Shown here piece by piece: positions 15,689 through 58,553 of a DNA stretch of 64,000 nucleotides. The stretch is from positions 8,092 through 72,091 of the forward strand of contig CAKSJY010000004.1 of assembly GCA_934464585.1 (NCBI GenBank), given 5' to 3'. Each line of letters starts with the position of its first letter. Position 1 is the stretch's first letter. The DNA is from an uncultured Eubacteriales bacterium. GTDB taxonomy: Bacteria; Bacillota; Clostridia; Oscillospirales; Acutalibacteraceae. The position numbers were made by a program, and so were the translations under genes. The notes beneath the pieces are model-generated. The model had not been told where the DNA came from and made no database searches. It worked only from the letters and a program-made list of their open reading frames with translations.

Positions 15689-15732
15689 GGTGTATTTATA
15701 TAAACACAACATATTTTTATATAGTAATCTTC

Positions 15733-15767
15733 ACAAAATAAAAATCACCGTGTATTATACACAGTGA
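15733..15767 (-). terminator. terminator after P4 (duplicate copy of the rubrerythrin terminator)
   Basis: ATCACCGTGTATTATACACAGTGA hairpin plus a T-run on the minus strand. It is sequence-identical to 17283-17317. Confidence 0.65.
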
Positions 15768-15843
15768 CTTTTATTTTAATAATTTTTAATTTTAACCTAA
15801 AATACTATTTATATTAATATGGTCATTAAGTTAGCCAATAAGC

Positions 15844-25200: not shown

Positions 25201-25593
25201 AAGCGAAAATTTTTTCTTCTCTGAAACCCTTACCGCTTCATCCTCCAAGGAAGTGTCACCTGCGTTACTTTCAGTTGCTGTACCGATAGCCTGCTGATAT
25301 ATATGTGTTAGTTCATGCTTAATTACTGTTTCATCATTTCTTTGGTCTGAGGTCACAAAAATACTATTTCCGCTAGCTGCAGCGTAAGGCTCATCGGCCT
25401 CCTGCTCGTCCATTACATAAAATTTAACATTTTGAGCGTCCATATTAAATCTGTCTCTTGCCCAATCTACCGCCCATTGTGGTAAGCTTTCTTTTTGCAG
25501 TTTAAAATCGGAAGAGATATTTCCTCCACCTGCAAAATTCCCTTTTTTATTTTTCTCTGATAATTGCCCATCGTCTTTTTTATAATCATACAT
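22264..25593 (-). CDS. large DUF4157-like (HExxH) domain protein with one TM segment and an uncharacterised ~920-aa C-terminal region
   Basis: ATG at 25593 lies 6 nt after GAGGTG. The N-terminal block SLPQWAVDWARDRFNMDAQNVKFYV...GNSIFVTSD...IKHELTHIYQQ matches the DUF4157 signature (HELTHxxQQ). The hydrophobic segment is SALAIAGLVVGGILTLGILPLGIWIA. Ser/Thr/Lys/Pro-rich linkers are present. Confidence 0.7.
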   Translation of the reverse strand: MYDYKKDDGQLSEKNKKGNFAGGGNISSDFKLQKESLPQWAVDWARDRFNMDAQNVKFYVMDEQEADEPYAAASGNSIFVTSDQRNDETVIKHELTHIYQQAIGTATESNAGDTSLEDEAVRVSEKKKFSLAKNQTQSDRYILPREKTNLVQYKMSALAIAGLVVGGILTLGILPLGIWIAKQIGYKKIAKNTGIQDVKTVKEIYDIFSWAEDEEDYLEDVEDLCSFKKKYNISLIQFREDSERYKEKFGKPGMSASRLISSYFDYLYSKFDPINTGNNISMSEASNSEYSTAESSIAETVNSESSRTESIGSDNKLKNLTNDFKNRSFGLIEKDMEILFGKSLANISSEEMEEYCKLYRSEGFSELTPEILEDYKKKILGEGKNSIEFYCLYRNLLFKTSFFKSIGIEEFIHKREKLAELFHLKIYSDYEVYLNNLMLTVVPPFKEANDKELAFTAIQLDEFIKDASELIDAGRLKECTDDEDVVNDICIGVARKRKSSEKAEPVNKATQAEKLDASSKSKQVITDKPLTNIMKNTTKKLIIGERQEEESKRTQELINNAVEGFTYLKPMPVTFNRSMKTPSTQSVNTRTLGIKSVQKSTNKAPLEGQIIASKAKVKPSRASIMEEQVPKPVFSEESEERLISTKPDVKPKVNPVINEVAAESPKTASSITSPEMIIFDIFAWSQNTSNGNSKGKDIFKNLYNVVNSKGIKLDILRMDSTFLEYIYLNKEIFANNSDEVIDAYIKFLKAGYKSVEGYFKLYIITNKFKDRSIDRINEDLMDLMLGDLYCCELYEINAYIELYDRWDKFSKLTCRDISQACMAIAGDISYVDLLEIKDKLNYFKESGIQIDEFNAIKKLFIKALNTDLYLELGLCLTDLPVDWFKNVFNGAGGLRMIINFNQFIEERSDAEKRMKASGQWEKGSIKKLITEFYSKEPFGRISMKGLDRLIKKCNEMANKRDKKSPNDMFINKSQPTDADAIKSCWAGITSYCTDKYFGLGEDEALSKENMPKDLGKLLEVTESFTKISVGKCEEILCEVYNRYIKSEGGKYMMDIFVSLFINRLLPETNCFRGIRADEASFMLFNLLEDGCETLVDKFKELQRLHMLPV

Positions 25594-25760
25594 AAACAGC
25601 ACCTCATACTATAATAAAAATATTGATTTGCCTGATTGATTAGTATATTTCCTTCAACAATATATCTTAAAAAATTCCTCTAATGTAATTATACCTTATT
25701 TATATATAAAAAGTCAAAATTCATTTCATTTAACCCACCCCCGCAAAAATTCACTATATA

Positions 25761-44504: not shown

Positions 44505-44525
44505 TTAAACTTAAGTTCTTAATCG

Positions 44526-44560
44526 GCGACTCGTCCTTTCTTAGGCGGGTCGCTTTTGTT
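44526..44560 (+). terminator. rho-independent terminator of ppdK
   Basis: Stem GCGACTCG/CGGGTCGC (one G-U pair) followed by TTTTGTT. Confidence 0.75.
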
Positions 44561-44675: not shown

Positions 44676-45152
44676 TTATTTAATCTCTATACAAACATAT
44701 TGTTTTCCTTGCTTATTTAGGTTTAAAAATGGACCTGAAGTAGGTACATCTTGGCTTTGAGATAAAATCAATGTAGTACCAGCAAGTTCCATCCCGCTTG
44801 TTGATCCATTCACCTGGTTACCTATTCCACCATTACATATAACACAGTTATTAGTAAAATCAAAGTCAGTAAATGGTTCTGTTGCTAAAAGCACAATAAC
44901 CATACTCGGTGCAAAGCTTAGTGTATGAGACTTAATAGATTTACCATCTCCTTGGAGTAGTTCAGCTGTAATCTGACTACCGGCTAATATTTGCCTGTCT
45001 GCCTCTGTTAGATGAATATTTGTATTTGTAGTATGCGAGTGTATAATACTGTCTAATATTGTATTATCACTTACAAAGTCTTCTCTTTTCGGCTTGTCAG
45101 TCCCAAGCCAACTATTTAAATTTAGGTTAGCCGTTTTATTTTGTGTAGGCAT
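44676..45152 (-). CDS. short tail-fibre/receptor-binding candidate (158 aa)
   Basis: It is the last gene of the tail module. The N-terminus ANLNLNSWLGTDKPKREDFVSDNTILD resembles conserved fibre N-termini of Firmicute myophages. Confidence 0.4.
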   Translation of the reverse strand: MPTQNKTANLNLNSWLGTDKPKREDFVSDNTILDSIIHSHTTNTNIHLTEADRQILAGSQITAELLQGDGKSIKSHTLSFAPSMVIVLLATEPFTDFDFTNNCVICNGGIGNQVNGSTSGMELAGTTLILSQSQDVPTSGPFLNLNKQGKQYVCIEIK

Positions 45153-45166
45153 CTTATTTTCCCCCT

Positions 45167-45727
45167 TTAAGTATCTATCTTATTCCAAGTTAAATCTTCA
45201 GCATCCATTTGGTTAAATGTATAGTCATTTTCATCTATCCTATCCCAGCTTAGATCCCTAAAATCAAAGTCACATCTTAAATGTGCCGGTAAAAATTGCT
45301 TTGCTTCATTAATTGCACTTTGTCTTTCTTCGGCACTCGAAAATGTGTCATTGCAGTTGAAATCAAACTTGGTACCGCCCCTATTTTCTATTATGTATCC
45401 CTCTATACCACAGGACTTCGCTGCTTCCTCAATTTTAACTTTTGTATAATCGTTTGATGTGATTTTATTTCTATATAAAAGCCTCTCCTGCCGTTCTGAG
45501 TTACCCAAATCACTTTTTAAATATCCAAAAAGTTTTTCTCTCAAATCCAATCCGAAAGACTGTGAAGTTGAAATAAAGCACTCTCTTTCAAGTTCATTAA
45601 ACCTTTCGTTTAAAAGCTCAAATCCTACCGCATATGCCGAAAGTTCAGCATTTACAATGCTTTCTGGCGATAGATTGTACAAACCAAGAGGTTTTAACTT
45701 TGATTTTAATAATGTCAATACACTCAA
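45167..45727 (-). CDS. baseplate/tail protein, XkdU (DUF2313, gpI)-like
   Basis: It follows Baseplate J. LGLYNLSPESIVNAELSAYAVGFELLNERFNELERECFISTSQSFGL fits the DUF2313 pattern. Confidence 0.7.
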   Translation of the reverse strand: MSVLTLLKSKLKPLGLYNLSPESIVNAELSAYAVGFELLNERFNELERECFISTSQSFGLDLREKLFGYLKSDLGNSERQERLLYRNKITSNDYTKVKIEEAAKSCGIEGYIIENRGGTKFDFNCNDTFSSAEERQSAINEAKQFLPAHLRCDFDFRDLSWDRIDENDYTFNQMDAEDLTWNKIDT

Positions 45728-45729
45728 GC

Positions 45730-46800
45730 TTAACTTCCTCCTTCAGTTATCGTGACTGTTTCCATGCAAACAAGCTCATTAGCACTTGTAGTGTAATCTG
45801 AGGAATTGCCTGAACCGAATCTATAATTTTTAACGCCTTCTATATTGAATATAGCATTCCCTAAACCAGCTAAAAGATATGGCTCCCCAATTTTAAGAGA
45901 TGAAAAGTACTCACCTATAACTGCCTCACATTCGTCCTTTATATCACTGAATATATAACCCTCTTGCGGATATATAATTATATCAACACTTCTTTTTACT
46001 TCTTTTGGTTTTTTTACGGTAACATCAACATTGATTTCCCTAAGAGCATTAATATCATCTTGTATACTTTTCATATCGTTATCACTTAAAGCGCCACCCC
46101 TTTCGGCAACATAAACGTATACTGTACCATCACCGCCGGCTCTTGAAACAGCGCTTGCAGAATATACATTGTCATATTGCAAAGCACATTCTTTATAGAA
46201 AGCCGCATTGGTTCCATTTGGAATATTTCTATAACTCTCTATTAATCTCTTTCTTAAATCACTGTCTGATTCACTATCGGTTCCGCCTGAAAATGCTAAG
46301 GCGTTACTAACCGCTGTAATTGCAGCGGGTGGAGTAACCATAATGGTTATTGTCTCTGCCAACGTATTTGAAGCTGTACCCGGCAGTTCGGCCTCTGCAT
46401 TGGCCTGTACTGAAAGTGAGCCTGCAGGTAAAACTACTGTTTCGGTAGTCTTATATCTAAATCCATCTGACCCCGAAGTTGCACATACTGTTCCTTCAGG
46501 AATTGTAACATCATATAAAATTGATCTTTGTCTGGAAAAAGTAAGCTTTCCTCTTGCCTTTGTTGCAGGTTTTCGAGTTAAACCTCGTTGCTCGGCGTGT
46601 AAATCCAATTGTGTACCTGTAGCTGTTTGAGGAAACATTTGATTTTTTAACCAATCCATACTTGCCATTGTTGAAAAAATTTCGCCTGCTAACACTTTTA
46701 ACCTTATTCCTATATCCGACGCTTCATCTGCGTCAAACCCAGCCAAATTTTTAAACTCATTTTGCATACTCTCCAGTATTTCAGAATATGTACTGCTCAT
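45730..46800 (-). CDS. baseplate J-like protein (XkdT-like)
   Basis: The Baseplate_J signature region is DIGIRLKVLAGEIFSTMASMDWLKNQMFPQTATGTQLDLHAEQRGLTRKPATKARG. Confidence 0.85.
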   Translation of the reverse strand: MSSTYSEILESMQNEFKNLAGFDADEASDIGIRLKVLAGEIFSTMASMDWLKNQMFPQTATGTQLDLHAEQRGLTRKPATKARGKLTFSRQRSILYDVTIPEGTVCATSGSDGFRYKTTETVVLPAGSLSVQANAEAELPGTASNTLAETITIMVTPPAAITAVSNALAFSGGTDSESDSDLRKRLIESYRNIPNGTNAAFYKECALQYDNVYSASAVSRAGGDGTVYVYVAERGGALSDNDMKSIQDDINALREINVDVTVKKPKEVKRSVDIIIYPQEGYIFSDIKDECEAVIGEYFSSLKIGEPYLLAGLGNAIFNIEGVKNYRFGSGNSSDYTTSANELVCMETVTITEGGS

Positions 46801-47144
46801 ACTATAACCTCCAATTCCTCTTTATTCTTATCTATTGAAAGGTTCACGCTAATCCTTAAATTTTCTGCACTATCTGCAAAACTTACATCAACACTATCCA
46901 CTTTTACCTCTTTCATATCTGCAAGAGCTTCATTAACTAAAATAGATGCCGTATTTTTTAGGTTACCTGTGCTACTTTTTAGAGTATATAGCCTACTGCC
47001 CAGATTTTTATCATATATAAAGCTTCCTTTTTTTACCGTAAGACGTATTAACGCACGTTGCAAAATCTCTTTTGCACCTGAAATCAAAAAAGGCTTTCCA
47101 GTAGTACCCAAACAGAAATCGCCGTTTTTTAGTGCTGTATCCAT
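46797..47144 (-). CDS. gp25/W-like baseplate wedge protein (XkdS, DUF2634-like)
   Basis: 115 aa. GAKEILQRALIRLTVKKGSFIYDKNLGSRLY fits the gp25-like pattern. It sits just before Baseplate J. Confidence 0.7.
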   Translation of the reverse strand: MDTALKNGDFCLGTTGKPFLISGAKEILQRALIRLTVKKGSFIYDKNLGSRLYTLKSSTGNLKNTASILVNEALADMKEVKVDSVDVSFADSAENLRISVNLSIDKNKEELEVIV

Positions 47145-47147
47145 ATA

Positions 47148-47492
47148 TTAGTCCTCTCCTTGTTTAAACTCTACACCATTTATCAATACCTTGCCATCAT
47201 TATTTAAAACCAAACTTGCTCCACCATTTGAATAAAGCATAATTTCTCCGGGTTTAAGATTTTTGTCTTCCGCTATAACGCCTGCACAAATGTATTTATC
47301 ACCTACCGGAATTATAACTGTCTTATCCCCATCAAGTGGTGAGTAGGCTATCCCTTTCGGAACTACAAAAGATATATTTCTATATTCACTACTATTTTGA
47401 ACATTTACGGTATTTGAACTTGAATATGTAACCTCACCATCAAGATTTTCATGGCTTATATTTGATACTGCAATCTTTTTGGAAATCCACAT
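47148..47492 (-). CDS. baseplate spike/plug protein (XkdR, DUF2577-like)
   Basis: Call rests on size and position between the hub and gp25-like genes, and on composition that looks beta-rich. Confidence 0.5.
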   Translation of the reverse strand: MWISKKIAVSNISHENLDGEVTYSSSNTVNVQNSSEYRNISFVVPKGIAYSPLDGDKTVIIPVGDKYICAGVIAEDKNLKPGEIMLYSNGGASLVLNNDGKVLINGVEFKQGED

Positions 47493-48433
47493 TAATTTTC
47501 CTCCTTAAACATAACAGCCTCTGTTTTTTCAATATTCGGAGATAAAATATATTTAATCTTTGATATATGCAAATCACTAATATTACCCAAAATCTTGTCC
47601 GAAATATTTACCTGCTGATTAACTTCGAGCGCTTGCAGACTTGGAAGCTCAACTGTAAACTGACAAAATTTTTCTTCACCAGATTTTATAATTTCCTCTC
47701 CGCATGATACCGGAGTCCTGCTGTCATTGGTATAATTCAAGTATCTTTTCCTTTTTATCCCTGTACCTAAAGCATTAGTATTACTTACTTTTATATTATA
47801 AGCAGCATCTTTTCCCGCTCTTACAAAAACCTCGGAAATTCTATTATATCTACATATATTTTCCTTAATCTCGAAATAACATATTCCATCCTTTGAGTTT
47901 TCTATAAATACTTTATCCTTTTCACAATCTTTCCCTGTTGCATCAACAACAAATTCATCTATTACACGAGGGGTTGTATTTAAATATGTTTTACAAAACT
48001 TTTCTAAAACACCCCACTCGCTCATACCCTTTGTGACTGTAAACTCACCTGTAAATACACTTTTATCACCAATTATTTTCTTAAACCCATATGGTTTTAT
48101 ATGTCGATCAAAAATAATCTCAAGTGAAGGCGAATAATACACCTGTGGCATAGCTTCATTATCTAAAAGCCACGCAGCATAACTTCTTGCATAAATTTCT
48201 AAAAAGCAACCATCAGCATTTATTTTTGTTATCTGTTCGTCAACAATGCCGGAAAAAATACTTTCATCGCTAATAAATACTTCTACACTCTTAAACTCCG
48301 GTACTTTTTCTAAAATGGGGAAGGTAGCACTTAGGTTGTCTGCCGGTGTATCAATTTCCTTTGTTATATTTACTAAATACGGGTTTTCAAATATAACTTC
48401 TCTATCATCTATAGTTTTAAACTTAAATTTCAC
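47492..48433 (-). CDS. baseplate hub protein (XkdQ / gpD-like)
   Basis: 313 aa, placed directly after the LysM protein as in PBSX. Confidence 0.55.
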   Translation of the reverse strand: MKFKFKTIDDREVIFENPYLVNITKEIDTPADNLSATFPILEKVPEFKSVEVFISDESIFSGIVDEQITKINADGCFLEIYARSYAAWLLDNEAMPQVYYSPSLEIIFDRHIKPYGFKKIIGDKSVFTGEFTVTKGMSEWGVLEKFCKTYLNTTPRVIDEFVVDATGKDCEKDKVFIENSKDGICYFEIKENICRYNRISEVFVRAGKDAAYNIKVSNTNALGTGIKRKRYLNYTNDSRTPVSCGEEIIKSGEEKFCQFTVELPSLQALEVNQQVNISDKILGNISDLHISKIKYILSPNIEKTEAVMFKEEN

Positions 48434-48957
48434 CTAAGCACCACCCTCTGCCCCTCTTCAAGTGAATCGGGTCTTTTAATTTCCGGATTAATTTTCATAA
48501 GGTCTGAAACTGTTGTGTTATATTTATAGGCTATGTTCCAAAGGTTTTCTCCCTTACTTGCCGTATAATAGCTTTCACTCAAACTTGTAACTTCTATACC
48601 AGATTTTTCTATACTTTCCCAAAACTCAAAGCTGTAGCTTAATGAATCCTCTGCCTTATTCCCTAACATTTTCAATGATTTGAAACTTGCTAAAAACGGC
48701 TCCTCACCGGGTAGTTTTAGATATCCTGTTTCATCGCTTAAATAAACCTCTCTAAGCTTATTAAACTTTTCTAAAAAATTTTCTCCAAAAAATTCTCCGG
48801 ATCCTTTTACAACTCTTTTAGCTCTTCCAAAATTTTGCAAAACATTTTTATAATAAGGACACTTAATATCTTTTATATTTTTTTCTTCATCAACCGATAT
48901 TTGACTTGGATTGTACTCCCAAACATAATCTTTATAACTCATTTTTTCTAAACTCAT
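48430..48957 (-). CDS. LysM-domain tail protein (XkdP-like)
   Basis: C-terminal LysM motif YTASKGENLWNIAYKYNTTVSDLMKINPEIKRPDSLEEGQRVVL. Confidence 0.8.
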   Translation of the reverse strand: MSLEKMSYKDYVWEYNPSQISVDEEKNIKDIKCPYYKNVLQNFGRAKRVVKGSGEFFGENFLEKFNKLREVYLSDETGYLKLPGEEPFLASFKSLKMLGNKAEDSLSYSFEFWESIEKSGIEVTSLSESYYTASKGENLWNIAYKYNTTVSDLMKINPEIKRPDSLEEGQRVVLR

Positions 48958-49250
48958 ATTTTAGTTCCCCCCAAGTCTGCTTCAAACATACATGGATATC
49001 TTCTGAAATCCCTTTCAAATATATCCGATACAATCTGCGCATCAAACAATTCATCTTTAGAAATTTGTGGCGTATCATCTTCCGATAACGGTTGTCTAAC
49101 ATCTTCCGACACATCTATTTCTATATTTTTTGTTTCTAATTTATTTAATTTTAAAGTTGGCAGCCATAAGCTTTCTTTTGATCTATTTTTTAAAGCGGCC
49201 TGTCTATTCTTTTTAAATATATCGTTAAATATCATCAACTGAATCACCAC
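48954..49250 (-). CDS. 98-aa ORF occupying the tape-measure-protein position
   Basis: It lies between the chaperone pair and the LysM gene, where xkdO-type tape-measure genes (usually many hundreds of codons) sit. It overlaps the LysM start by 4 nt and the upstream ORF by 26 nt. Confidence 0.5.
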   Translation of the reverse strand: MVIQLMIFNDIFKKNRQAALKNRSKESLWLPTLKLNKLETKNIEIDVSEDVRQPLSEDDTPQISKDELFDAQIVSDIFERDFRRYPCMFEADLGGTKI

Positions 49251-49440
49251 TCATTTCTATAAATTTATTCTCGTCAAAATTTTCGTTTATACCTTCTTCA
49301 ATTCCTTCCGGTTCCTCATCCAAAAGCATATGAATATAACAATATATATAATCACCCTCACACATGTTTCTGGCGTCATAGGATGTTGGAAGTGATCCAA
49401 ACCTTTTTAAAACTTCATAGCATATCCTTTGTTTTGGCAA
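49225..49440 (-). CDS. tail assembly chaperone, -1 frameshift extension (GT-like)
   Basis: The acidic 71-aa ORF is in the -1 frame relative to 49443..49835. It is reachable by slippage on the A9 run at the end of that gene. Confidence 0.6.
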   Translation of the reverse strand: MPKQRICYEVLKRFGSLPTSYDARNMCEGDYIYCYIHMLLDEEPEGIEEGINENFDENKFIEMSGDSVDDI

Positions 49441-49442
49441 AC

Positions 49443-49457
49443 TTAGTTTTTTTTTAA
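49443..49457 (-). other. programmed -1 ribosomal frameshift site (slippery TTA AAA AAA AAC TAA)
   Basis: Nine consecutive A residues on the minus strand (49447-49455) lie immediately before the stop codon. The -1 frame is open from there into 49225..49440. Confidence 0.6.
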
Positions 49458-49835
49458 GTTTCGCACTACACTTGGTGTAAGCTTATCAAATGTTAAAAAA
49501 TTCTTCTGTAGTTCAGCATATTTATTAGCTACCTTTAAAAGCTCTTCTGGAGTTAAAATAGAAAGTGCATTAAATCCATCCTTAAATACAAGTTTATCCT
49601 TTTCGTCATACAAACAAAGCGATGTAAGCACCGCATTTTCTGCCACAGATTTAGAAATCCTTTGGTCTGCACCATCAGCAATAAGTCTTTCCAAAAGTTT
49701 TCTTGATTCTTTTTCGCATAAAATTGCTTCATATACTGATAAAAGACTTATATAAAACACTCCGGACAAAAGCTCTATAGGTTCTCTTGTAAACTTTCCA
49801 CCAAGAAGTTGTCTTCCTACTCTCTTTTTCATCAT
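49443..49835 (-). CDS. tail assembly chaperone (XkdN-like)
   Basis: 130 aa, placed directly after the tube gene and ending in the slippery A-run. Confidence 0.65.
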   Translation of the reverse strand: MMKKRVGRQLLGGKFTREPIELLSGVFYISLLSVYEAILCEKESRKLLERLIADGADQRISKSVAENAVLTSLCLYDEKDKLVFKDGFNALSILTPEELLKVANKYAELQKNFLTFDKLTPSVVRNLKKN

Positions 49836-50221
49836 AATATTTCCATCCTTTTTGCAGCAATAATTTGTACATCTTCAAGTATGGTATCATTAAGCGATGC
49901 TGACTCTTTTATATCAAACCACTCACATCCGGAATAAACTATTCTTCTGTCAGGTTTTACTATAACCAAATTAAAATTATGTAAATCAAAAAAATTTACT
50001 GCGGTATCTGATTGGCCGTCAAAATACATATAAACCCTAGATAAACTTATAACATGCTTTATTCTACCGGATACTGTACCAACAGGTTCTTTTTCTCCAA
50101 AAGCTTCAATATATCTGCTGTTTTGACTTGATTGAGCCTTATAGCTTTCAACAACCGCAAGCTTTTTTCCGTTTACCTCTATATAGATATCCTGACTTGT
50201 TGGAAATACAGCCTTTAACAT
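49832..50221 (-). CDS. contractile tail tube protein (XkdM-like)
   Basis: 129 aa, immediately downstream of the sheath gene. Confidence 0.7.
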   Translation of the reverse strand: MLKAVFPTSQDIYIEVNGKKLAVVESYKAQSSQNSRYIEAFGEKEPVGTVSGRIKHVISLSRVYMYFDGQSDTAVNFFDLHNFNLVIVKPDRRIVYSGCEWFDIKESASLNDTILEDVQIIAAKRMEIL

Positions 50222-50233
50222 ATAGTCTCACCC

Positions 50234-51289
50234 CTAAACTTTTATATTTGCTGAAATAATAATTTGATTTAATCCATGTGAAACTGTAAAAGATACTTCC
50301 ACAATACACACAGTCGCATCTTGGTCCGACACACTTATATTAGGTTGCTGGTAATCTACAATTATTCCGCTGTCTTTATATTCCTGAAGTTTTATAACTG
50401 TCTGAGTCGCAATCGCAGAACGTGTTGTAACATTATTTTTCCCACCTAAAAGATTGTTTTTAAGCATATCTCTAAGGCCTGGAATTACTTCATCTATTAT
50501 TAAAACTGTATTTATGTCTTTAAATGTTGTATCAAAAACACCGTCTGTCGTTGTTTTGGATGTAACAAGCCTGATTATTTCGGCCTCATCTAAAACACAT
50601 TCCAATGGTGTAATACCGTTTGTTATATATGTATCTATATCATCCTCATCAAGTGTAGGAGAAATTCCCTTTATGCCACTTAAAGTCTTTGTATTAAATG
50701 ACGAAGACGGATCTACATTTCCGGAAATCACACCGGCTAAAGCCGCAGCCAACAAATTTCCGGAAAGTTCTTTTAAGCTTTCATCAAGTGGAATTTGTGA
50801 AAGCAATATCATCCTTTCGCAATTTAGGCCTTGTGCCCAACTCTTCACGCTATCTATATTTTCATATTTACCGAAAGAAACTATCCCCAGTCGTTCCTTT
50901 TGATTCTTTGAGCAATTAAGTATACTTGTTTTTAAAAGGTTATGTACCGTAGGACTTGTACTGTCACAAACAACAGTATAAATACCATTTTGTGTTTCTA
51001 ATGTACTAAAAGCTGCCTCGTAATCACAGCTTGTACTTGTACCAGCCGAAACTGCCATGACTTCCGAAGCGCCGTTTTTCAGTGCCATACAGCAAAGAGA
51101 GTACATCTCGCCCTCGACACCAAAAATAGTTTCAGCATCTACTGCCTTGGTTATTTTGTGAACTACATTAGCTTCAGCACTATTTAGTGCTACTATACCA
51201 ACTGCCTTACCTTTGCCATTCGACCATATTACTCCGGAGGTATTATAATCTGAATAAACTCCCGGCCTTTGATGTGCAATTACCGACAT
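50234..51289 (-). CDS. contractile tail sheath protein (XkdK-like)
   Basis: The N-terminus HQRPGVYSDYNTSG...GKAVGIVA is typical of sheath proteins. 351 aa. Confidence 0.8.
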   Translation of the reverse strand: MSVIAHQRPGVYSDYNTSGVIWSNGKGKAVGIVALNSAEANVVHKITKAVDAETIFGVEGEMYSLCCMALKNGASEVMAVSAGTSTSCDYEAAFSTLETQNGIYTVVCDSTSPTVHNLLKTSILNCSKNQKERLGIVSFGKYENIDSVKSWAQGLNCERMILLSQIPLDESLKELSGNLLAAALAGVISGNVDPSSSFNTKTLSGIKGISPTLDEDDIDTYITNGITPLECVLDEAEIIRLVTSKTTTDGVFDTTFKDINTVLIIDEVIPGLRDMLKNNLLGGKNNVTTRSAIATQTVIKLQEYKDSGIIVDYQQPNISVSDQDATVCIVEVSFTVSHGLNQIIISANIKV

Positions 51290-51783
51290 TATATTTCTCC
51301 CTTCACTTGAATATCACTTATTTCTATTTCTTCATTTGACTTACCTATAAATATTCTCATTTTCAACAAACAATCTAAAAAGTACACCTCTGAACTTTTA
51401 TCAAATCCTACCTCTTTGCAATTTATTTTATAAATTTGTTTCAAATCCGGATCTAAAAATAGGCAATCAAATATTTTAGAAAAAATATCTGAACAATTGT
51501 TGCTACCTAAAAATTTAGGTGAATTTATTCTCAGCAGAACAGTCATGGAACAATTTTTACCAAACACATCTTTTCCGCATGATTGACCAAAGTAGTTTCC
51601 AAACGCTCGATCAGACGAATCCACTTCTGAAATTCCGATAGTCACATAACTACTTCTAATTGGATTAGGTCGCTTTACCGCTCTATATGAGTTTATAAAA
51701 CCTACTTCTGAAAGTTCTTCATCTGCTGATAATTTGTTTTTTATATCCTCTGCAATCTCATCAAATATTCCCATCATATCCAC
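51289..51783 (-). CDS. neck/tail-completion protein
   Basis: The call rests on its position between the head-closure and sheath genes only. Confidence 0.4.
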   Translation of the reverse strand: MDMMGIFDEIAEDIKNKLSADEELSEVGFINSYRAVKRPNPIRSSYVTIGISEVDSSDRAFGNYFGQSCGKDVFGKNCSMTVLLRINSPKFLGSNNCSDIFSKIFDCLFLDPDLKQIYKINCKEVGFDKSSEVYFLDCLLKMRIFIGKSNEEIEISDIQVKGEI

Positions 51784-51792
51784 CCTTTACAT

Positions 51793-52152
51793 TTAAGTTA
51801 TATTGTCGTCAGGCACATATTTCTGCAATATAGCCCAAATATACAAAACTTCATCCGCTAAGCATATTTTCTCTGCTCTTTTTATTGTATATAAATCACC
51901 ATTACACCTTAAAGTAGTGTCAATTGGGAATGTATCTATCCTAACATCCGGCATACCGGTATATATAAATGTATTTATATCTGCAATACCCAATTTTAGG
52001 TATTGATAACCAAATGTATTTTTATCTACATATCTGCTGGGTTGAATCATCGCTTTTGTAGTCGCTTTTAGGTTATTTAAGCCGTCTAATACCTCAACAG
52101 TACTCCCGTGTTGTTTGATTAGAGACCTTACTGTTGTATCACGTCCCATCAT
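51793..52152 (-). CDS. head-tail adaptor / head-closure protein
   Basis: The call rests on position only. It overlaps the connector gene by 4 nt. Confidence 0.4.
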   Translation of the reverse strand: MMGRDTTVRSLIKQHGSTVEVLDGLNNLKATTKAMIQPSRYVDKNTFGYQYLKLGIADINTFIYTGMPDVRIDTFPIDTTLRCNGDLYTIKRAEKICLADEVLYIWAILQKYVPDDNIT

Positions 52153-52529
52153 ACGATGCTCACCCTTTCTGCCAAAAACTCATTATCATTTATTAAATCC
52201 AATATAAGTGCTTTGGCATCTAGCCATACTCTATATGCTAAATCAACCATTGTTTTTTTATCGATGGTAACCTTTATGTCTCCCGCTGCAAAATCGTTCA
52301 TGCCTTCTCCTGAAGCCCTATACACCGTATATCTATAATAAACCAAGGCGGCGGCAGCGGCATTAAGCCGCATGCCATTTTGTTCTTCTGTCAATGGGTC
52401 CTTAAGCATTCTTCTTATATCTTCTTCCGCCTCGCTACAAATAGGTAACCACGGTGATACTTCTTCGTCACTTAGAGATGCTATTAATGCGAACCTTTTT
52501 AATATCTCCTGTATATCCAAGTAGCTCAC
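52149..52529 (-). CDS. gp6-like head-tail connector protein
   Basis: The N-terminus SYLDIQEILKRFALIASLSDEEVSPWLPICSEAEEDIRRML resembles the phage gp6-like connector family. It follows the capsid gene. Confidence 0.6.
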   Translation of the reverse strand: MSYLDIQEILKRFALIASLSDEEVSPWLPICSEAEEDIRRMLKDPLTEEQNGMRLNAAAAALVYYRYTVYRASGEGMNDFAAGDIKVTIDKKTMVDLAYRVWLDAKALILDLINDNEFLAERVSIV

Positions 52530-52542
52530 CTCTTATACAAAA

Positions 52543-53544
52543 TTACCAAGTTAATTTTTTAGTAGCATCTGCAAAAATCTTTGCAAAACCTGTAATACTA
52601 CTTACAGATGCTCTTTCAAGCTGTCTGTCGATTAACTTATCGTAATCAACTATAACATCGCCTGCTTGAACCATTTCAAGTGCACAATTTCTATCGATAC
52701 CTATAATTGTTTCGGCTGTTACTGATGGTACATGAACTAAAGTAGCCCCAAGTGGTGTAACAAGTTTACCAGTACCTTGGAAATTAAGTCCTGCTTGAGC
52801 ATCCTTCATATCTTCAAGATTTAAAATAGTTTGCATTGTTGCAGTTGAAGCCAACATTGTATTTAGTTCATATGGTGATAAACTTGCCCAAAGTTTTACA
52901 AGATCTGAATATGTAAGAGTATCAGCGGTTGCTGAAGATACTTGGCCTGCTGCATTGTTGTTTCCATCACCATTTAGTAATACATCAACAGCATCGTCTA
53001 GCTGCGCTCTTGCAATACAAGCACCAATTCTTTTTAGGCTTACTGTAAACAAGTCAAGGTGTTGGAATCTTAATGCTTCATAGGAAGCTACAAGCATTCT
53101 ACCTCTTTTATTTAACCTAATTAAGTTATCTTGTGTACGGATATTAGTTTTAGGTAATTCAGCACCCTCTGCAATATTTGTTGCATCAGTTTCATCTTCT
53201 GAAACAATCCCTCTATAGTCAAGGCCTTCTATTTTTGTAGTTGTTGCAACAATCGAAGGTAGCATATTATTTTCTTCGATACCTTGTCTTACTGCTCTTA
53301 CAATGTATTCAGGAAATAGCACTGCTGAATCTGATGTTTGGAAGAATTTATCGATAACATCTGAATTTGTGCCGCAAACCTTAATATTAAAACGTTTTAG
53401 CTGACGTTCAAAAGCATCTAAACCTGCTAGCTCTGTATTTTCATAATTTTCTGATGGGTCTAAAACCTCCAAATTTTGAGTAAAACTGTTTTTACCTGTA
53501 TTGTACATACCTTTTTCAAGTTTTATTGAATCATAAAATGCCAT
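52543..53544 (-). CDS. major capsid protein
   Basis: 333 aa, in the XkdG position after the protease/scaffold and the small DUF2190-like gene. It has a strong RBS. Confidence 0.7.
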   Translation of the reverse strand: MAFYDSIKLEKGMYNTGKNSFTQNLEVLDPSENYENTELAGLDAFERQLKRFNIKVCGTNSDVIDKFFQTSDSAVLFPEYIVRAVRQGIEENNMLPSIVATTTKIEGLDYRGIVSEDETDATNIAEGAELPKTNIRTQDNLIRLNKRGRMLVASYEALRFQHLDLFTVSLKRIGACIARAQLDDAVDVLLNGDGNNNAAGQVSSATADTLTYSDLVKLWASLSPYELNTMLASTATMQTILNLEDMKDAQAGLNFQGTGKLVTPLGATLVHVPSVTAETIIGIDRNCALEMVQAGDVIVDYDKLIDRQLERASVSSITGFAKIFADATKKLTW

Positions 53545-53567
53545 AATTTTTTCCTCCTAAATTTTAT

Positions 53568-53912
53568 TTATAAAATAATGCCTGTTGTTGCGCTTGTTGA
53601 ATCGATATCCATAACTAAGATTTGTCTTCCCTTTTCACTATCGGCTTTTACCTTATTAGAACCATCTGAAGACAATGATTGATAACCCAATGCTGTAAAT
53701 GTACCACTATATGGTAATGTTACATATCCACCAACTTTTACTGCAGCATATCCATTGTTTACAGATAAAACTACGCCACAAAATGTGTTAGTATTTGCAC
53801 ATTTTTCTACTGTCTTATTTGCACTTATTTTTACTAAATCTCCCTTTTTAACCCCAGACGCTGCGATTAAAGTTACTACCTTATCTTCATATCCACTTAA
53901 AGAAACACTCAT
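53568..53912 (-). CDS. small head-associated protein (DUF2190-like)
   Basis: 114 aa, beta-rich, placed between the scaffold/protease and capsid genes. Confidence 0.45.
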   Translation of the reverse strand: MSVSLSGYEDKVVTLIAASGVKKGDLVKISANKTVEKCANTNTFCGVVLSVNNGYAAVKVGGYVTLPYSGTFTALGYQSLSSDGSNKVKADSEKGRQILVMDIDSTSATTGIIL

Positions 53913-53926
53913 TACAATCTCTCCTT

Positions 53927-54928
53927 TTAAATTTTAAATTCAGTATTTGTATTTTTCTTTTTTTCTGTTTTTTTAGGTAACAATTGTGGTTTAAATACGT
54001 TATATTCCAAAGACTTCTTCTCAAAAGCATTTTTAAAACTTTTCAATTCAGATATGTCCATTTTATCGGCAACACTTTTCATTGTTTCAATGCATATACC
54101 ACTTTCTGAACCAGCACAAAGCCTTATAACTTCTCTTTTTAAATCCTCTTTATATTGTTTGCCATCTTCTGCTTCTTGTTTTAGCGATTTAATTAATTCA
54201 TATAGATTTTCTGAATCGCTGCTACTAAGTGTAATTTCCTCTTTATTCTGTAAGCTTTTTAAGATATTTTCCATTCCTATATCACTCCTTTCTACACCAT
54301 TAAACTTTTTAATAACCCCTGCCCCTTTTTGTGCCGGAACCGCCACAAATGACCATTCATAGGCATCATATGGTTCAGATAACACATGGTAGCAAAACTT
54401 CTCCTCATTACCCACCTTATAGACATTCCCTTTTTGGTGGTTGCATCGGGACTTTCGTAAATTCTTAGAACATATTGAACAAAACTTTTCCTTAACTGCA
54501 CAACTAACACTTACTTCTTTCTTTATTCCTGAATCTATATCGGTAATAAAGTCTTTATTCTTGTCAGTTCTTGGCGTATATGCCCTTGCTGCAAGCCTGA
54601 AATAAGGTTGTCCTAAAGAGTTAACGACCCCTGGTACTTCCTCTACCTTACATGAAATAATCCTTGCTTTTTGGTTTTCAGCTTTCATGTTATGGTCCAA
54701 TATACCTGTTTTCCCAACAAACAGCTCAGATAACTTCACCAAGGCTTCCTTTGTAAACATCTCACCATCTCTGTCGACTTCATTGTCGCAAAGCACAACC
54801 GAAAAAATATATACATCTGATTCTTCAAATTTTCTTCTTGTATACTTATTAACAAGCTCCATTTCATTTGATATATTCTCGGTATTCTCTTCGCTTTTTA
54901 ATATGTAACCGCTTTTCACCTTTATCAC
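53927..54928 (-). CDS. prohead protease/scaffold fusion (XkdF-like)
   Basis: It sits after the portal gene. The N-terminal domain carries VYIFSVVLCDNEVDRDGEMFTKEAL and the C-terminal tail is a charged coiled-coil scaffold-like region. An internal Cys cluster reads C-x6-C-x2-C-x8-C. Confidence 0.55.
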   Translation of the reverse strand: MIKVKSGYILKSEENTENISNEMELVNKYTRRKFEESDVYIFSVVLCDNEVDRDGEMFTKEALVKLSELFVGKTGILDHNMKAENQKARIISCKVEEVPGVVNSLGQPYFRLAARAYTPRTDKNKDFITDIDSGIKKEVSVSCAVKEKFCSICSKNLRKSRCNHQKGNVYKVGNEEKFCYHVLSEPYDAYEWSFVAVPAQKGAGVIKKFNGVERSDIGMENILKSLQNKEEITLSSSDSENLYELIKSLKQEAEDGKQYKEDLKREVIRLCAGSESGICIETMKSVADKMDISELKSFKNAFEKKSLEYNVFKPQLLPKKTEKKKNTNTEFKI

Positions 54929-54980
54929 CTCACCGTTTTAAACGTTAAATATATAAATAACACACTATAATGTGTGATAT

Positions 54981-56126
54981 TTATTCACTAAGTCTTTTTT
55001 CTATTTCCATAGCCCTTGCCTCTAAAAGTCTCGCATTTGCTACTTGGACTCTATCTTGTAGATTTATATCACTCCACTTTATCTCATACTCAGTAAATAA
55101 ACCTTTTGAAACAAGCCACATATTGCAGATTTTTCTTATAACAGGATTTAATATTCTTCTGTATGCATTAAGTTCACTTGTAAGTAAATCAGCTTGTTGA
55201 GTAGACATTCTTTCCGACGTTGACCAGGAAAGTCCTAAAAAACACGGTGGTATTGATAATTTTGCTACTATCTGCTCTAACATCTGCTTTACCGGTACAA
55301 GACTATCTAATATCTGATTATCAGCACCTATCACCTTAATATCTACATCGCCAACTGCAACAAAATCATTTATTCCTCCGTCACTTCTCATGGTTTTGCT
55401 CCATTCGGTAGCTATTTGCATCGCTCTCTCTTTTGCATAGGCTCTTTCTGCAGCATCATTTCCAGGTTTGTATGTAACAGCAAAACGTATATTTCCAACT
55501 CTCTCCCAGTTCACACCAATGCTATGATAAATTTTTAAGAGTATATTGCTAACAAACGGTAACCCTTTTAAAATCGATGTACCATATATTTCACCCGGAA
55601 GCGGATTTAATGTTGAAACCAAAACGAGTTCTTTATTTCTAATAGGAAATGCCTTATCTCCATCTTTTTTACAAATAATTAAATCCATTGGATTATTGTC
55701 TACTCTAAGTTCTACATCTCTTAGATCTGCGTTATATAATGCCATGTCCTGACTTCCACATTCATATGGAATAATTTCACCAATTGCCGTACCATATGTT
55801 AAAAGTTGATCCATATAAGTGCTTATAAAGCTCTGTATTCCCTGGCCACTTGCACCAACCTTTACATATTGAAAAAAATCTTTTAATTGCTTCTCAATTT
55901 TTTTGTTCTCACATTCAATATCAAAATACCCCATAAGCCTAATCGTTTTGCAGATAGCCGAATCTATTATCGGAACTGCTTCTCTTAGCGATTCATACAA
56001 TCTTACCTCTGTGTCTGAAAGCGGAACATATCGGTTAAGAGCCGAAAACGGATGTACCGTTTCAGATTTCGACGGTGCCGTTTGTACAATATTTTGAGAC
56101 TTTTTTACTTTCTTAAATAAATTCAT
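54981..56126 (-). CDS. portal protein
   Basis: 381 aa, immediately downstream of TerL. The size and position are typical of a portal. Confidence 0.7.
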   Translation of the reverse strand: MNLFKKVKKSQNIVQTAPSKSETVHPFSALNRYVPLSDTEVRLYESLREAVPIIDSAICKTIRLMGYFDIECENKKIEKQLKDFFQYVKVGASGQGIQSFISTYMDQLLTYGTAIGEIIPYECGSQDMALYNADLRDVELRVDNNPMDLIICKKDGDKAFPIRNKELVLVSTLNPLPGEIYGTSILKGLPFVSNILLKIYHSIGVNWERVGNIRFAVTYKPGNDAAERAYAKERAMQIATEWSKTMRSDGGINDFVAVGDVDIKVIGADNQILDSLVPVKQMLEQIVAKLSIPPCFLGLSWSTSERMSTQQADLLTSELNAYRRILNPVIRKICNMWLVSKGLFTEYEIKWSDINLQDRVQVANARLLEARAMEIEKRLSE

Positions 56127-56137
56127 ATTTTCCTCCC

Positions 56138-57394
56138 TTATCTTCTTGATGCCACAACAAAAAAGCCACTACTTTCACTTGATAATATTGTTGTGACAAA
56201 ATATCTTATATCATCCATTGCATGGTCATTTTCTTTTATTGGTACGTCTTTACCGACTGTATTTTCCCAACGATACAGACCGAATTCCCTTATGCTGTCT
56301 GAACAGGTATTGCAAATCTTTATTTTCCCTTGTTTTAATACTGTAGATACTTCCCTTATTCCATCGACTACATTGTTTTTAGCCGGTATAACTCTAAATT
56401 TATTTTTCTTGTTAATAAGCGTAATAAAACTTGCAGCTGATGGATCAACTGTAACAACATCTATATCCAAACCATCGGAAAGTTCTAAAAGTGCATTATA
56501 ATGTTCCTCATCTGTACGTTGTATACCAATTTTTCTTGAATCGTAATAATATTCTTTTATTCTGTACCAAACTCCGTCATAGTTTCCCCATAGTCCAAAT
56601 GACGCCGGGTTTACGGTACCGTAATCACATGAAATTGCATACTTTGAACATATGCCCTTTGGCACATCACAAAACATATTACTGTTTGACATAAACGGAT
56701 ATACAGCCCCTTCTGCGGCAACCCATCTACCTTTTATAAACCTGTCATAAAACGTCCCTGTATATAAATTTTCATAACGATTTATCATTTCTTTAGAAAG
56801 TGACGGGTTGTCATCCATAGTAAAATGCAGATATAAAACTTTCTTTTCCTTTGCCTTTAATATCCATTCTCTATAGAACCAATGCCCCGGGTACTCCGGG
56901 TTACAGTTAAACCAAAATTTTGAACCTTCCACCGAGCACCTTGCTATTGCCTGTTTTACAAATGACTGTGGCATCAGTGCCACCTCATCAAACAAAACCC
57001 CGGAAAGTGTAATACCCTGGACAAGTGCCGCTGAGGATTCATCTTTACCACCAAAAATATAGAAACTATTTTTACGACCATTTTTCGTAATTTCCAATAA
57101 ATTTTGAGAGATTCTTTCTCTACAACTAAATCCCATCTCTTCCAAAATCGGTATAAGCGGTGCTATCAGGTTTCTTCTAAGTGAACGAATAGTTTTTCCA
57201 CATATAGCAAAGCTTCCTCCCTCGAACCTATAAAAAGCCCAGGCAATAAATGAAATCGACATACATAACGTCTTACCGCTTCTAACTGAGCCATCACAGA
57301 TTACCGCATCATAGTCCTTATATTTGCTGTTTTCACACCACCAAGATAGAACTTTTAACTGTTTTTCAGAAAAATTTTTAAATTTCACAATCAT
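56138..57394 (-). CDS. terminase large subunit (PBSX/XtmB-type)
   Basis: Walker A DGSVRSGKT and Walker B VLFDEV. The C-terminal nuclease segment carries TVDPSAASF and ENDHAMDDIRYF. Confidence 0.85.
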   Translation of the reverse strand: MIVKFKNFSEKQLKVLSWWCENSKYKDYDAVICDGSVRSGKTLCMSISFIAWAFYRFEGGSFAICGKTIRSLRRNLIAPLIPILEEMGFSCRERISQNLLEITKNGRKNSFYIFGGKDESSAALVQGITLSGVLFDEVALMPQSFVKQAIARCSVEGSKFWFNCNPEYPGHWFYREWILKAKEKKVLYLHFTMDDNPSLSKEMINRYENLYTGTFYDRFIKGRWVAAEGAVYPFMSNSNMFCDVPKGICSKYAISCDYGTVNPASFGLWGNYDGVWYRIKEYYYDSRKIGIQRTDEEHYNALLELSDGLDIDVVTVDPSAASFITLINKKNKFRVIPAKNNVVDGIREVSTVLKQGKIKICNTCSDSIREFGLYRWENTVGKDVPIKENDHAMDDIRYFVTTILSSESSGFFVVASRR

Positions 57395-57900
57395 TCCTCC
57401 GACTCTTTCTCTTTCGAGCTCAATGCCTTAGCACCGTTTTCCAGAGCCTTATAAAACGGAGTAACATCGTCTGCATTGTTATGACCCGAATCTCGCAATT
57501 TTTCGATTGCTGTTAATCTATCAAAAAACTTTATCTCAAGTCCCCCATCTTTATTTTTCTTTATTTCGGATATATTAAATAAATCCATATTTTCAAGCAT
57601 TTGCAATGTTGGCGTATCAGAAAACAAAAGGCTAATAGGATCTGAAATATTCCCGAATGCCAAACGCTCATAACCACTGTTGGCTTTGTTTTTAAGGTGC
57701 AGATTTTTAAGTTTATAAAGCCTTGAAATTTCATGATTTATTTCTTTTCTTGCAAGTAGCCTTATCCCAGCCCTCTCAGGTTCTCTACGATATCCTGATC
57801 TAAGCGCAGACTCTTTAACATTTCCATTATTTACATAGTTGTAACAAAAAAGCCTTTCTTTAGTACTTAAAGTTGTCGATGCCTTCTTCCTCAAATTCAT
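57391..57900 (-). CDS. terminase small subunit
   Basis: KERLFCYNYVNNGNVKESALRSGYRREPERAGIRLLARKEI is a Terminase_2-like HTH N-terminus. It overlaps TerL by 4 nt. Confidence 0.75.
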   Translation of the reverse strand: MNLRKKASTTLSTKERLFCYNYVNNGNVKESALRSGYRREPERAGIRLLARKEINHEISRLYKLKNLHLKNKANSGYERLAFGNISDPISLLFSDTPTLQMLENMDLFNISEIKKNKDGGLEIKFFDRLTAIEKLRDSGHNNADDVTPFYKALENGAKALSSKEKESEE

Positions 57901-58199
57901 CTCACTCCTTTTGTTCTCTCAATATACAGAAAAAAAGACCTGTTTTTTCCCCTCTTGAGGGCAAAAAAACAAATCTTTTTTATTTTTATCTTAAAATTAG
58001 CTCTTTTTAGCCTTTATTATCCTAAATTTATTTCTATTTTTTAACAGTAATAACTCTCTGCTCCACTCCGGTCTTGAAAACACTTTCAAAATAATATAAA
58101 ATGTATAGTCAAAATATCAAAAGAAAATGTAACATTTATCTACCTAGTAATATCAATATAAATTAATTAAATTTTCAATGCTTTTTGCTTTTAATCGCG

Positions 58200-58553
58200 T
58201 TATTTTCTTTTTTTCTTTCCAGAAACATAAAGACCTATTAATATAATTACAAGCAAAGAAGCAACCACTGAAATTCCTATATATAAATATACCTTGGCCT
58301 TTCTGCTGGGCTTTATATCTCTATCATTATTCGAAATATTTCCTTCTTTAACATATTCACTTTGTTCATCAACAACATTTGTTTCTGCTGTTGCAGTCAA
58401 AGATTTTTCCGAAAAATCAACCTTATATGCTAGGTTATCACAGTAAAAGCATATAAGAAACGCTGAAAACATTAATATAAAAAATAAAATATTTTTCTTG
58501 TATCCCACATTACTCCTTCTTTCTTTGTAAAACCATGTTATTATAGTTCTCAC
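58200..58553 (-). CDS. small two-TM membrane protein with a basic C-terminus
   Basis: The hydrophobic segments are ILFFILMFSAFLICFYC and VYLYIGISVVASLLVIILIGLYV. It ends in GKKKRK. Confidence 0.4.
   Translation of the reverse strand: MRTIITWFYKERRSNVGYKKNILFFILMFSAFLICFYCDNLAYKVDFSEKSLTATAETNVVDEQSEYVKEGNISNNDRDIKPSRKAKVYLYIGISVVASLLVIILIGLYVSGKKKRK

Follow-up and report, generated by a model that had tools for sequence, protein, structure and literature searches.

A PBSX-ordered head and predicted stub-tail operon in an uncultured Oscillospirales bacterium is probably a domesticated, vertically inherited particle locus

Gene content and order of the particle operon

The window analysed here is a 64-kb stretch (64,000 nucleotides) of contig CAKSJY010000004.1 in genome assembly GCA_934464585.1, and its host belongs to the Oscillospirales and is uncultured, low in GC and spore-forming. 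Within the window lies a phage-like particle operon of 21 co-oriented open reading frames (ORFs) on the minus strand, which spans positions 44676–57900 (13.2 kb) and resembles the PBSX element of Bacillus subtilis. A preliminary description of this DNA had reported a tightly packed block of 21 minus-strand ORFs in the xtm–xkd gene order of PBSX, and both observations hold. The junctions between neighbouring ORFs range from −26 to +52 nt, 99% of the operon span is coding, all 21 ORFs are intact, and the order matches that of PBSX from xtmA to xkdV, with a large terminase that belongs to the same family (TIGR01547). The GC content of the cluster (0.33–0.36) is that of its surroundings.

The packaging and head genes come first. 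The small terminase TerS (169 aa, 57391–57900; PF03592 at 1.3e-12, phrog_2606/51) covers the N-terminal portion of the Terminase_2 model. It is followed by the PBSX-family large terminase TerL (418 aa, 56138–57394; TIGR01547 at 5e-60 and 204 bits against a cut-off of 105, PF03237, PF04466 and phrog_2) and the portal (381 aa, 54981–56126; phrog_30703 at 1e-129). The slot of the prohead protease or scaffold is occupied by a 333-aa protein (53927–54928) assigned from its position and coiled-coil C-terminus, with a match to an unannotated family (phrog_16951 at 2e-92). This protein has no match in Pfam, NCBIfam or the PDB, and its single-sequence AlphaFold2 model is unusable, with a predicted local distance difference test score (pLDDT) of 34; it is kept in all 80 related genome loci. 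Next come a small head protein (114 aa, 53568–53912; phrog_4588, 'virion structural protein', at 1e-24), a major capsid protein of the HK97 type (333 aa, 52543–53544; PF25209, PF05065, TIGR01554 and phrog_3922 at 1.6e-97) and three connector or neck proteins of 126, 119 and 164 aa (51289–52529), placed by position and, for the 164-aa protein, by phrog_25177. Homologues of the neck proteins lie 3′ of the capsid gene in most relatives, loci without a tail module included.

The tail part begins with a contractile sheath (351 aa, 50234–51289; PF17482 at 9e-11, PF04984 and phrog_279 at 2e-34) and a tube protein (129 aa, 49832–50221), the latter assigned from its place after the sheath and from an unannotated family (phrog_27038 at 1e-41), with 84% identity to its counterpart in a related locus, L001. 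A gpG-like tail assembly chaperone (130 aa, 49443–49835) follows, with a gpGT-like extension of about 70 aa in the −1 frame (49225–49458), and then a miniature protein of 93–98 aa in the tape-measure slot (48954–49250), which is recognised by the slot itself and by ends that are conserved in relatives. The baseplate genes comprise a LysM-domain protein at the XkdP position (175 aa, 48430–48957; PF01476 at 2.6e-11), a hub (313 aa, 47492–48433; phrog_177, 'baseplate hub', at 1.5e-17) whose Flavonifractor plautii homologue weakly matches PF22255 (Gp44-like), a putative spike or small baseplate protein placed by position (114 aa, 47148–47492; unannotated phrog_25991), a sheath initiator similar to gp25 and Mu gp46 (115 aa, 46797–47144; PF07409 at 5e-4, and PF10934, Sheath_initiator, precomputed for an identical protein), a Baseplate J wedge (356 aa, 45730–46800; PF04865 at 6e-50 and phrog_6 at 3e-67) and a protein similar to Mu gp48 and DUF2313 (186 aa, 45167–45727; phrog_521, 'tail protein', at 4e-14), the F. 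plautii homologue of which weakly matches PF10076. The last gene encodes a 158-aa protein (44676–45152), a candidate fibre or receptor-binding protein by its position; it has no match in Pfam or NCBIfam, and homologues with 26–49% identity close the cluster in relatives.

These labels come from profile searches against Pfam, NCBIfam and PHROG, the weaker ones being taken from position. Of the names given in the preliminary description, TerS, TerL, portal, capsid, sheath, LysM, hub, gp25-like, Baseplate J and DUF2313-like are borne out by profiles, while those of the XkdF-like protein in the scaffold slot, the tube, the spike, the 126- and 119-aa neck proteins and the 158-aa fibre derive from position or unannotated PHROGs. 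The Pfam families of the PBSX proteins XkdF, XkdM and XkdN find no match in the operon. Among solved structures no match was found for the sequence of the capsid, the sheath or the scaffold-slot protein, and a scan of the locus against Rfam was empty too.

A predicted chaperone frameshift and a miniature protein in the tape-measure slot

The preliminary description had listed the chaperone as a pair of genes, the second being a 71-aa ORF. A G/GT-type chaperone is indeed present, and it is the independence of the two genes that does not stand. In the window and six relatives (39–73% identity) the chaperone is exactly 130 aa long and ends in ...TAAAAAAAAA(C/T)TAA. A slippery run of nine adenines (A9, 49447–49455) lies just before the stop codon, and the −1 frame is open across it (TTAAAAAAAAAC in the window, 49443–49458, minus strand). 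The extension in this frame carries the motif KKKLNxPxER..WEVLK.F..LP...A..M...DY.YCY in all seven loci and in F. plautii. The F. plautii locus, at 61–66% GC, retains TTAAAAAAAG at the equivalent position (17437–17444 of locus L166), with the same −1 frame motif after it. The slippery site and the extension are thus conserved in hosts of 31% to 66% GC. This pattern identifies a G/GT-type pair that is predicted to be joined by a programmed −1 frameshift and not to consist of two independent genes, and the survival of the site through such divergence argues that tails are still assembled.

The protein in the tape-measure slot is 93–125 aa long in the seven loci and 186 aa in F. plautii. An alignment of these eight loci shows conserved N- and C-terminal motifs and a variable middle. 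The span from the end of the tube gene to the LysM gene is 200–1174 nt in the nine sheath-bearing relatives that were measured, no tape measure of normal length is seen in any family member read, and a homologue search with the miniature protein returned only the query's own cluster. An apparent 'long-tailed' subclass (L013 and L017), with a supposed tape measure of 772–788 aa, was rejected; its genes are the host rimP-nusA-infB-rbfA-nrnA operon, and the 772-aa candidate is InfB. A tape measure acts as a ruler at about 1.5 Å per residue, so that a protein of about 95 aa would set a stub of tube and sheath some 15 nm long, with three or four rings. The locus is therefore predicted to encode a very short contractile tail.

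The tail content of the family was surveyed in 70 loci that extend at least 7.5 kb beyond the capsid gene. Sheath, tube and baseplate genes are found together in nine of them, tube and baseplate genes without a sheath in eight, and baseplate genes only in 12. In the remaining 41 loci the neck genes are the last of the element, and host operons begin beyond them. Nowhere in the locus is conservation higher than in terminase, portal and capsid. On these counts, the head module is the invariant core of the element, and the tail has been reduced, lost or perhaps relocated.

Putative upstream control region, flanks and missing life-cycle genes

A conserved block (57914–57962, minus strand) ends 14 nt before the start codon of TerS. 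It consists of a short hairpin (GCCCTC..GAGGGG), an A-run and a T-run, and the box TGTATATTGAGAGAA, and it is conserved in the window and in L001, L002 and L011 despite the saturation of silent sites between them. In many of the relatives (L001–L165), a terminator-like hairpin with a T-run precedes a related box, with the consensus CTATGGGTGAGAGGA, at 15–70 nt before TerS; sites that score 12 bits or more are present in 30 of 94 loci, an enrichment of about 54-fold over the remainder of these loci. The block may act as a promoter or operator, and the box may be the route by which the host controls the element. The best sigma-70-like match in the region (TTGATA, a spacer of 16–18 nt and TATATT/TATTAT; 58091–58120, minus strand; 10 of 12 positions) is weak evidence, because such matches are no commoner here than in shuffled sequence.

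The operon is flanked by ppdK and alr on one side and by DUF1015 and glgP on the other. As the preliminary description had it, ppdK is convergent and ends in its own terminator-like hairpin (44525–44554, plus strand; an 11-bp stem with seven GC pairs and a T-run), which marks the distal boundary of the block. The same description had found no integrase, repressor, replication, holin or endolysin gene in the 64 kb and had left room for such modules just outside. No family of these kinds is matched in the window or in a further 10 kb of the identical host contig, which continues beyond glgP with an alpha-amylase, QueG and a CBS protein. The window likewise has no match to the families of the PBSX-type xre and xpf regulators or of the xhlA/xhlB/xlyA lysis cassette, and contains no tRNA gene; no direct, att-like repeats were found to bracket the block.

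Distribution and carriers

The family is wide. In a scan of one genome per species, relatives of the portal occur in at least 578 species-representative genomes, most of which are metagenome-assembled genomes (MAGs) labelled Acutalibacteraceae, Oscillospiraceae, Ruminococcaceae, Eubacteriales or Clostridia. The cluster is thus not confined to a strain, a possibility that the preliminary description had kept in view. More than 6,700 portal relatives are found at 90% clustering. At 50% identity with E ≤ 1e-30 these give only 217 clusters, so that the portal is unusually conserved for a phage protein. The order TerS–TerL–portal–scaffold slot–capsid is kept in 80 of 80 genome loci, as far as their contigs reach.

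Cultured carriers include Pseudoflavonifractor capillosus ATCC 29799, Flavonifractor plautii (with the 3.82-Mb genome of strain YL31), Massiliimalia massiliensis and Acetanaerobacterium elongatum. The F. plautii locus has the architecture of the window; a gene for an SLH-domain protein, MatE and FeoAB flank it on one side, and further chromosome flanks it on the other. F. plautii YL31 has two excising, inducible prophages at 1.01–1.05 Mb and 2.98–3.03 Mb (PMC8008629), and the element lies at 0.95–0.97 Mb in the genome of another F. plautii strain of near-identical length. These coordinates, which come from two different strains, suggest that the F. plautii element lies outside the excising prophages.

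Several features of the Flavonifractor and Pseudoflavonifractor branch were noted in passing. In F. plautii CP096970.1 (L166, 11083–12094) a tandem array of a 220-bp unit (4.6 copies, 96% matches) starts within the portal gene, at its 3′ end, and repeats the final codons of that gene; L167 and L161 have the array and L168 does not, so that it varies between strains. The gene at the TerS position (L166 8437–8724; L152–L161) encodes 95 aa and is undetected with the 169-aa TerS of the window, so the small terminase may have been truncated or replaced in this branch.

The portal family itself is named 'serine/threonine protein phosphatase' by NCBI (PGAP) and UniRef (P0049, P0086, P0149 and P0240–P0258), apparently an error that has been copied from record to record. 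A gene for a PASTA Ser/Thr kinase lies downstream of the cluster in seven loci and may be the source of the name.

Occurrence in phage and virome collections

Among 50,697 phage records, no close relative of the portal or the sheath was found in a cultured or annotated phage. The matches in this collection are unannotated scaffolds from faecal viromes and a distant portal (28% identity) in Microcystis phage MACPNOA1, and those of the sheath are virome scaffolds only. The near-identical complete prophages that would have marked the cluster as a recent deletion remnant are likewise not found among these genomes. The largest virome scaffold with the module (L083, GenBank MT835508.1, 'Bacteriophage sp.', from the virus-like particle fraction of faeces) is bacterial chromosome, with genes for NrdD, RnfC, ABC transporters, RpoA and SecY around the head module. 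In IMG/VR, 315 portal-bearing contigs are listed as viral, many of which are just the 11–13-kb cluster (L086–L165). One IMG/VR contig (L148, 766–6582), read by eye, has a cassette of tail-fibre, CHAP-LysM endolysin and holin-like genes upstream of the element, with a cyclophilin gene between them; it could be the end of an adjacent prophage or an accessory locus of the kind found at the second locus (II) of the Faecalibacterium gene transfer agent. Literature searches, incomplete in coverage, found no prior description of the present family.

Host context, inheritance and selection

The genes next to the element are housekeeping genes. They differ between sublineages and are stable within each. 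Upstream neighbours are MgtE in 15 loci, Mfd in seven, an HTH_3–lipase-like protein in seven and YunB in six, and TerS lies within about 400 nt of a host gene such as MgtE. Downstream neighbours include PrkC (the PASTA kinase), NrnA, phosphoglucomutase and tRNA synthetases. DUF1015 adjoins the element in the window and in L001, L002 and L011, which bears on the question, raised in the preliminary description, of whether the location is shared with related species. Among the 243 flanking ORFs of 150–650 aa, no integrase, recombinase, lysin or holin occurs in the 25 families listed for each flank, down to families of two members, and no primase or Rep family recurs.

The head proteins of the element diverge together with these neighbours. 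In the MgtE-linked clade, the identity of MgtE tracks that of TerL, portal and capsid (Spearman 0.83; 15 genomes, 105 pairs), with mean identities that are equal (74% and 75%). In the Mfd-linked clade, the identities of the head proteins and of Mfd are correlated at a Pearson r of 0.90 (seven genomes). The GC content of the cluster follows that of its flanks with r = 0.97 over a range of 29–58%. The element is inherited vertically, and its head proteins co-diverge with the host neighbours.

Selection on the genes was judged from the proportions of differences at non-silent (pN) and silent (pS) sites. Silent sites are saturated between the window and L001, L002 and L011 (pS 0.54–0.90). The pN is 0.09–0.37 against L001 for every compared gene and reaches 0.48 against the more distant L002 and L011. 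Against L001, the values for TerL (0.10), capsid (0.09) and tube (0.11) are all lower than that of the neighbouring DUF1015 gene (0.24). Every compared gene is under purifying selection, as pN lies far below the saturated pS in each case.

Comparison with known systems

PBSX is the closest known system in organisation. The two share a TerL of the same family (TIGR01547), the order TerS–TerL–portal–scaffold slot–capsid–connectors–sheath–tube–chaperone–tape measure–LysM–hub–baseplate–fibre, and the condition of a chromosomal, non-replicating element of a Gram-positive host. The window locus differs in having no linked regulators of the xre/xpf type and no xhlAB/xlyA lysis cassette, and in its tape-measure slot of 93–98 aa, where PBSX has the long XkdO-type protein. 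XkdO is about 1,300 aa long. Moreover, PBSX is confined to a few Bacillus species, whereas the present family occurs in at least 578 species. The term 'PBSX-like' of the preliminary description is therefore apt for the terminase family and the gene order, and does not extend to the regulatory genes, the lysis genes or the long tape measure.

The gene transfer agent (GTA) of Faecalibacterium prausnitzii, FpGTA, is likewise a domesticated packaging and head operon of gut Oscillospirales without replication or integration genes (Borodovich et al. 2026, PMC12946183). The tail is very short or invisible in both, in the window element by prediction. FpGTA also encodes additional structural and lysis proteins at a second locus, an arrangement that fits the many head-only relatives of the window element. 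The two are set apart by annotation of their capsids: RCH50849.1 of FpGTA is annotated as N4-gp56, and the capsid here is of the HK97 type (TIGR01554). FpGTA is also reported to be podovirus-like, with a TerS that lacks a DNA-binding domain, in contrast to the sheath, tube, G/GT chaperone and Terminase_2 N-terminus of the window. Membership of the element in the FpGTA family was considered and rejected, since the capsid types differ, and the element represents a different lineage. FpGTA has been reported in Faecalibacterium only (PMC12946183), and a search with the portal of a high-GC locus of the present family gave no F. prausnitzii match among the best 120. According to the same study, host fragments of 4.6–8.9 kb are commonly packaged in GTA-like fashion by Ruminococcaceae and Oscillospiraceae, and no locus has been assigned for most of the producers (PMC12946183).

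With the RcGTA type of Alphaproteobacteria the element shares vertical inheritance in a large clade, purifying selection, a small head module of the HK97 type and a head–tail cluster that lacks life-cycle genes, and it may likewise depend on accessory loci elsewhere. It differs in its unrelated sequence and its phylum, and from the non-contractile tail of RcGTA and its TerS without a DNA-binding domain. Packaging and transfer of host DNA have been demonstrated for RcGTA; in the window element both are putative. The content of the head-only relatives (TerS, TerL, portal, protease or scaffold, capsid and connectors) recalls the capsid-forming phage-inducible chromosomal islands (PICIs) described by Alqurainy et al. 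(2023), which differ in their integrase, regulatory and replication modules, all absent here; the window element has its own tail module and is inherited vertically. Tailocins and extracellular contractile injection systems differ from the window in that terminase, portal and capsid genes are present in it.

A proposed mechanism and the nature of the element

The genes suggest how a particle could be made. A single operon would be transcribed from the conserved upstream control region. The portal, the protein of the protease or scaffold slot and the HK97-type capsid protein would form a procapsid, which TerS and the PBSX-family TerL would fill with DNA by a headful mechanism. Three neck proteins would link the head to a tail built on a baseplate of the Mu/PBSX type (LysM protein, hub, spike, sheath initiator, Baseplate J, gp48-like protein and fibre), and the tail would be assembled with the frameshifted G/GT chaperone pair and the tape measure of about 95 residues. 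Lysis functions and any dedicated regulator would be encoded elsewhere in the genome. We infer that particles form, that they package mainly host DNA, that their tail has the length given above and that they benefit the host, through gene transfer or through killing. Circumstantially, packaging of host DNA agrees with the virus-like-particle scaffold that proved to be host chromosome with the module, and with the GTA-like packaging reported in these bacterial families.

The block is probably a domesticated, vertically inherited and host-maintained particle locus, GTA- or viriform-like in its architecture and its evolutionary mode; we put the probability of this reading at roughly 70%. Two features by which GTAs and viriforms are recognised are both found. 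A chromosomal cluster of phage-like structural genes without genes for integration, replication or control of lysogeny is present in the window and in 80 related loci, and long-term vertical inheritance under purifying selection is seen in the occurrence in at least 578 species, the synteny within sublineages, the co-divergence, the tracking of host GC and a pN far below pS. The preliminary description had preferred a domesticated particle to a decaying prophage and had proposed dN/dS as a check. That preference is strengthened by the purifying selection, the co-divergence and the conservation of the frameshift site and the upstream box, and its term 'GTA-type' holds for architecture and evolutionary mode only.

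A number of points weigh against this interpretation. The relatives are almost all contigs of MAGs and not whole genomes. The genes used to measure co-divergence are physically linked to the element and would recombine together with it, and the genome pairs in these statistics are not independent. The head-only class partly depends on the sensitivity of tblastn, though the flanks that were checked are host operons. The position weight matrix behind the count of upstream boxes was trained on the very regions in which the sites were counted. Neither a lysis gene nor a regulator was located in the locus. TerS retains the N-terminal part of Terminase_2, unlike the TerS of RcGTA and FpGTA, which have no DNA-binding domain; pac-type initiation is therefore possible, and packaging may start at preferred sites. 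The 13.2-kb locus may be small enough for its own capsid, and transcription, particle formation, packaging and transfer are predicted from the genes.

The main functional rival accepts domestication and gives the particle another use, as a PBSX-type killer that acts against related strains in the manner of a bacteriocin or tailocin, with packaged DNA that is incidental and undelivered. To our knowledge, PBSX is the only well-studied Gram-positive precedent. The TerL family, the xtmA–xkdV gene order, the contractile sheath and the LysM baseplate protein all fit a killer, and the authors of the FpGTA study raised the same alternative for FpGTA (PMC12946183). A killing tail, however, needs no conserved packaging and head genes, and here the heads are invariant while tail genes are missing beside them in 41 of 70 loci; the predicted sheath, at about 15 nm, would have little stroke with which to puncture a Gram-positive wall; and the regulatory and lysis genes of PBSX are not linked to the locus. 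We regard this alternative as unlikely, with some weight nonetheless.

Two further explanations deny that the host maintains the element for itself. A helper-dependent element such as a capsid-forming PICI or other satellite, or a minimal temperate phage, with genes for integration, regulation and replication located elsewhere or provided by a helper, would account for the many relatives that encode packaging, head and connector genes only, for the 315 IMG/VR portal contigs listed as viral and for the tail-fibre, holin and endolysin-like cassette that, read by eye, adjoins the element in L148. It is nevertheless improbable, given that the 243 flanking ORFs contain no recurrent family of integrases, recombinases, primases or Rep proteins, that TerS sits so close to host genes such as MgtE, that att-like repeats and a tRNA gene are absent, that the element co-diverges with its host neighbours, that the window element has a complete tail of its own and that many of the IMG/VR contigs are merely the 11–13-kb cluster. 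The absence of all but structural genes and a tape-measure slot that looks deleted could also be what a recent deletion leaves of a prophage, a structural module without function for the host. A decaying remnant of this kind is very improbable, as all 21 ORFs are intact with pN far below pS in each, the organisation, the short tape measure and the frameshift site are kept in genomes at silent-site saturation, the location beside DUF1015 is kept in L001, L002 and L011, and there are hundreds of carrier species.

Beyond the reading of a domesticated, host-maintained locus, a wider proposal can be put forward tentatively, at somewhat less than even odds: that the family is an order-wide GTA family of gut Oscillospirales distinct from FpGTA, that its conserved small-head module is the basis of much of the GTA-like packaging without an assigned locus, by which short pieces of host DNA come to be found in human and animal gut viromes, and that its tail is in graded reduction, from a contractile stub through a tube-only form to tail-less or split forms.

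Other features of the window

A small membrane protein with two transmembrane segments and a KKKRK tail (117 aa, 58200–58553, minus strand) is encoded upstream of the operon, and its membership in the element is uncertain. It has no family match and, among the relatives, a homologue in L001 only (48% identity); a holin role was considered for it and dropped on these grounds. The other roughly 40 kb of the window are housekeeping, with the C-terminus of pyrG, an aminotransferase, NAPRT, DegV, SpoIIE, rpsB, tsf, CtpA, and an M23 peptidase with FtsEX, among others. Four tandem paralogues of 589, 312, 305 and 433 aa (11687–17145, minus strand) are secreted proteins with repeated ...GGGVYN... units and near-identical N-terminal signal regions; none of the three that were scanned matches Pfam, and the 589-aa protein was profile-scanned while the others were read by eye. 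A further ORF of 1112 aa (22264–25602, minus strand) has an N-terminal HExxH-like motif (HELTHIYQQ), one transmembrane segment, a long middle of low complexity and no Pfam family.

Significance

Recent work has shown that capsids in the human gut mobilise DNA most often by GTA-like packaging of host DNA, which is found chiefly in Ruminococcaceae and Oscillospiraceae; FpGTA is the sole locus tied to it. A second, unrelated and far wider family would, if true, give candidate loci for many of the unexplained producers. Since cultured and widely used strains carry the locus, such as F. plautii YL31 of Oligo-MM12 and P. capillosus ATCC 29799, the particle hypothesis is directly testable. The results also call for a correction of databases, in which the portal is apparently misnamed a phosphatase and module-bearing fragments of host chromosome pass as viral, in sequence deposits and in catalogues alike. 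The miniature tape measure that is found family-wide, together with the stepwise loss of sheath, tube and baseplate, gives a rare chance to study by comparison what determines tail length and which parts a domesticated particle requires. If the wider proposal is correct, these loci would form a natural series in which the host strips a phage down to a device for the export of DNA.

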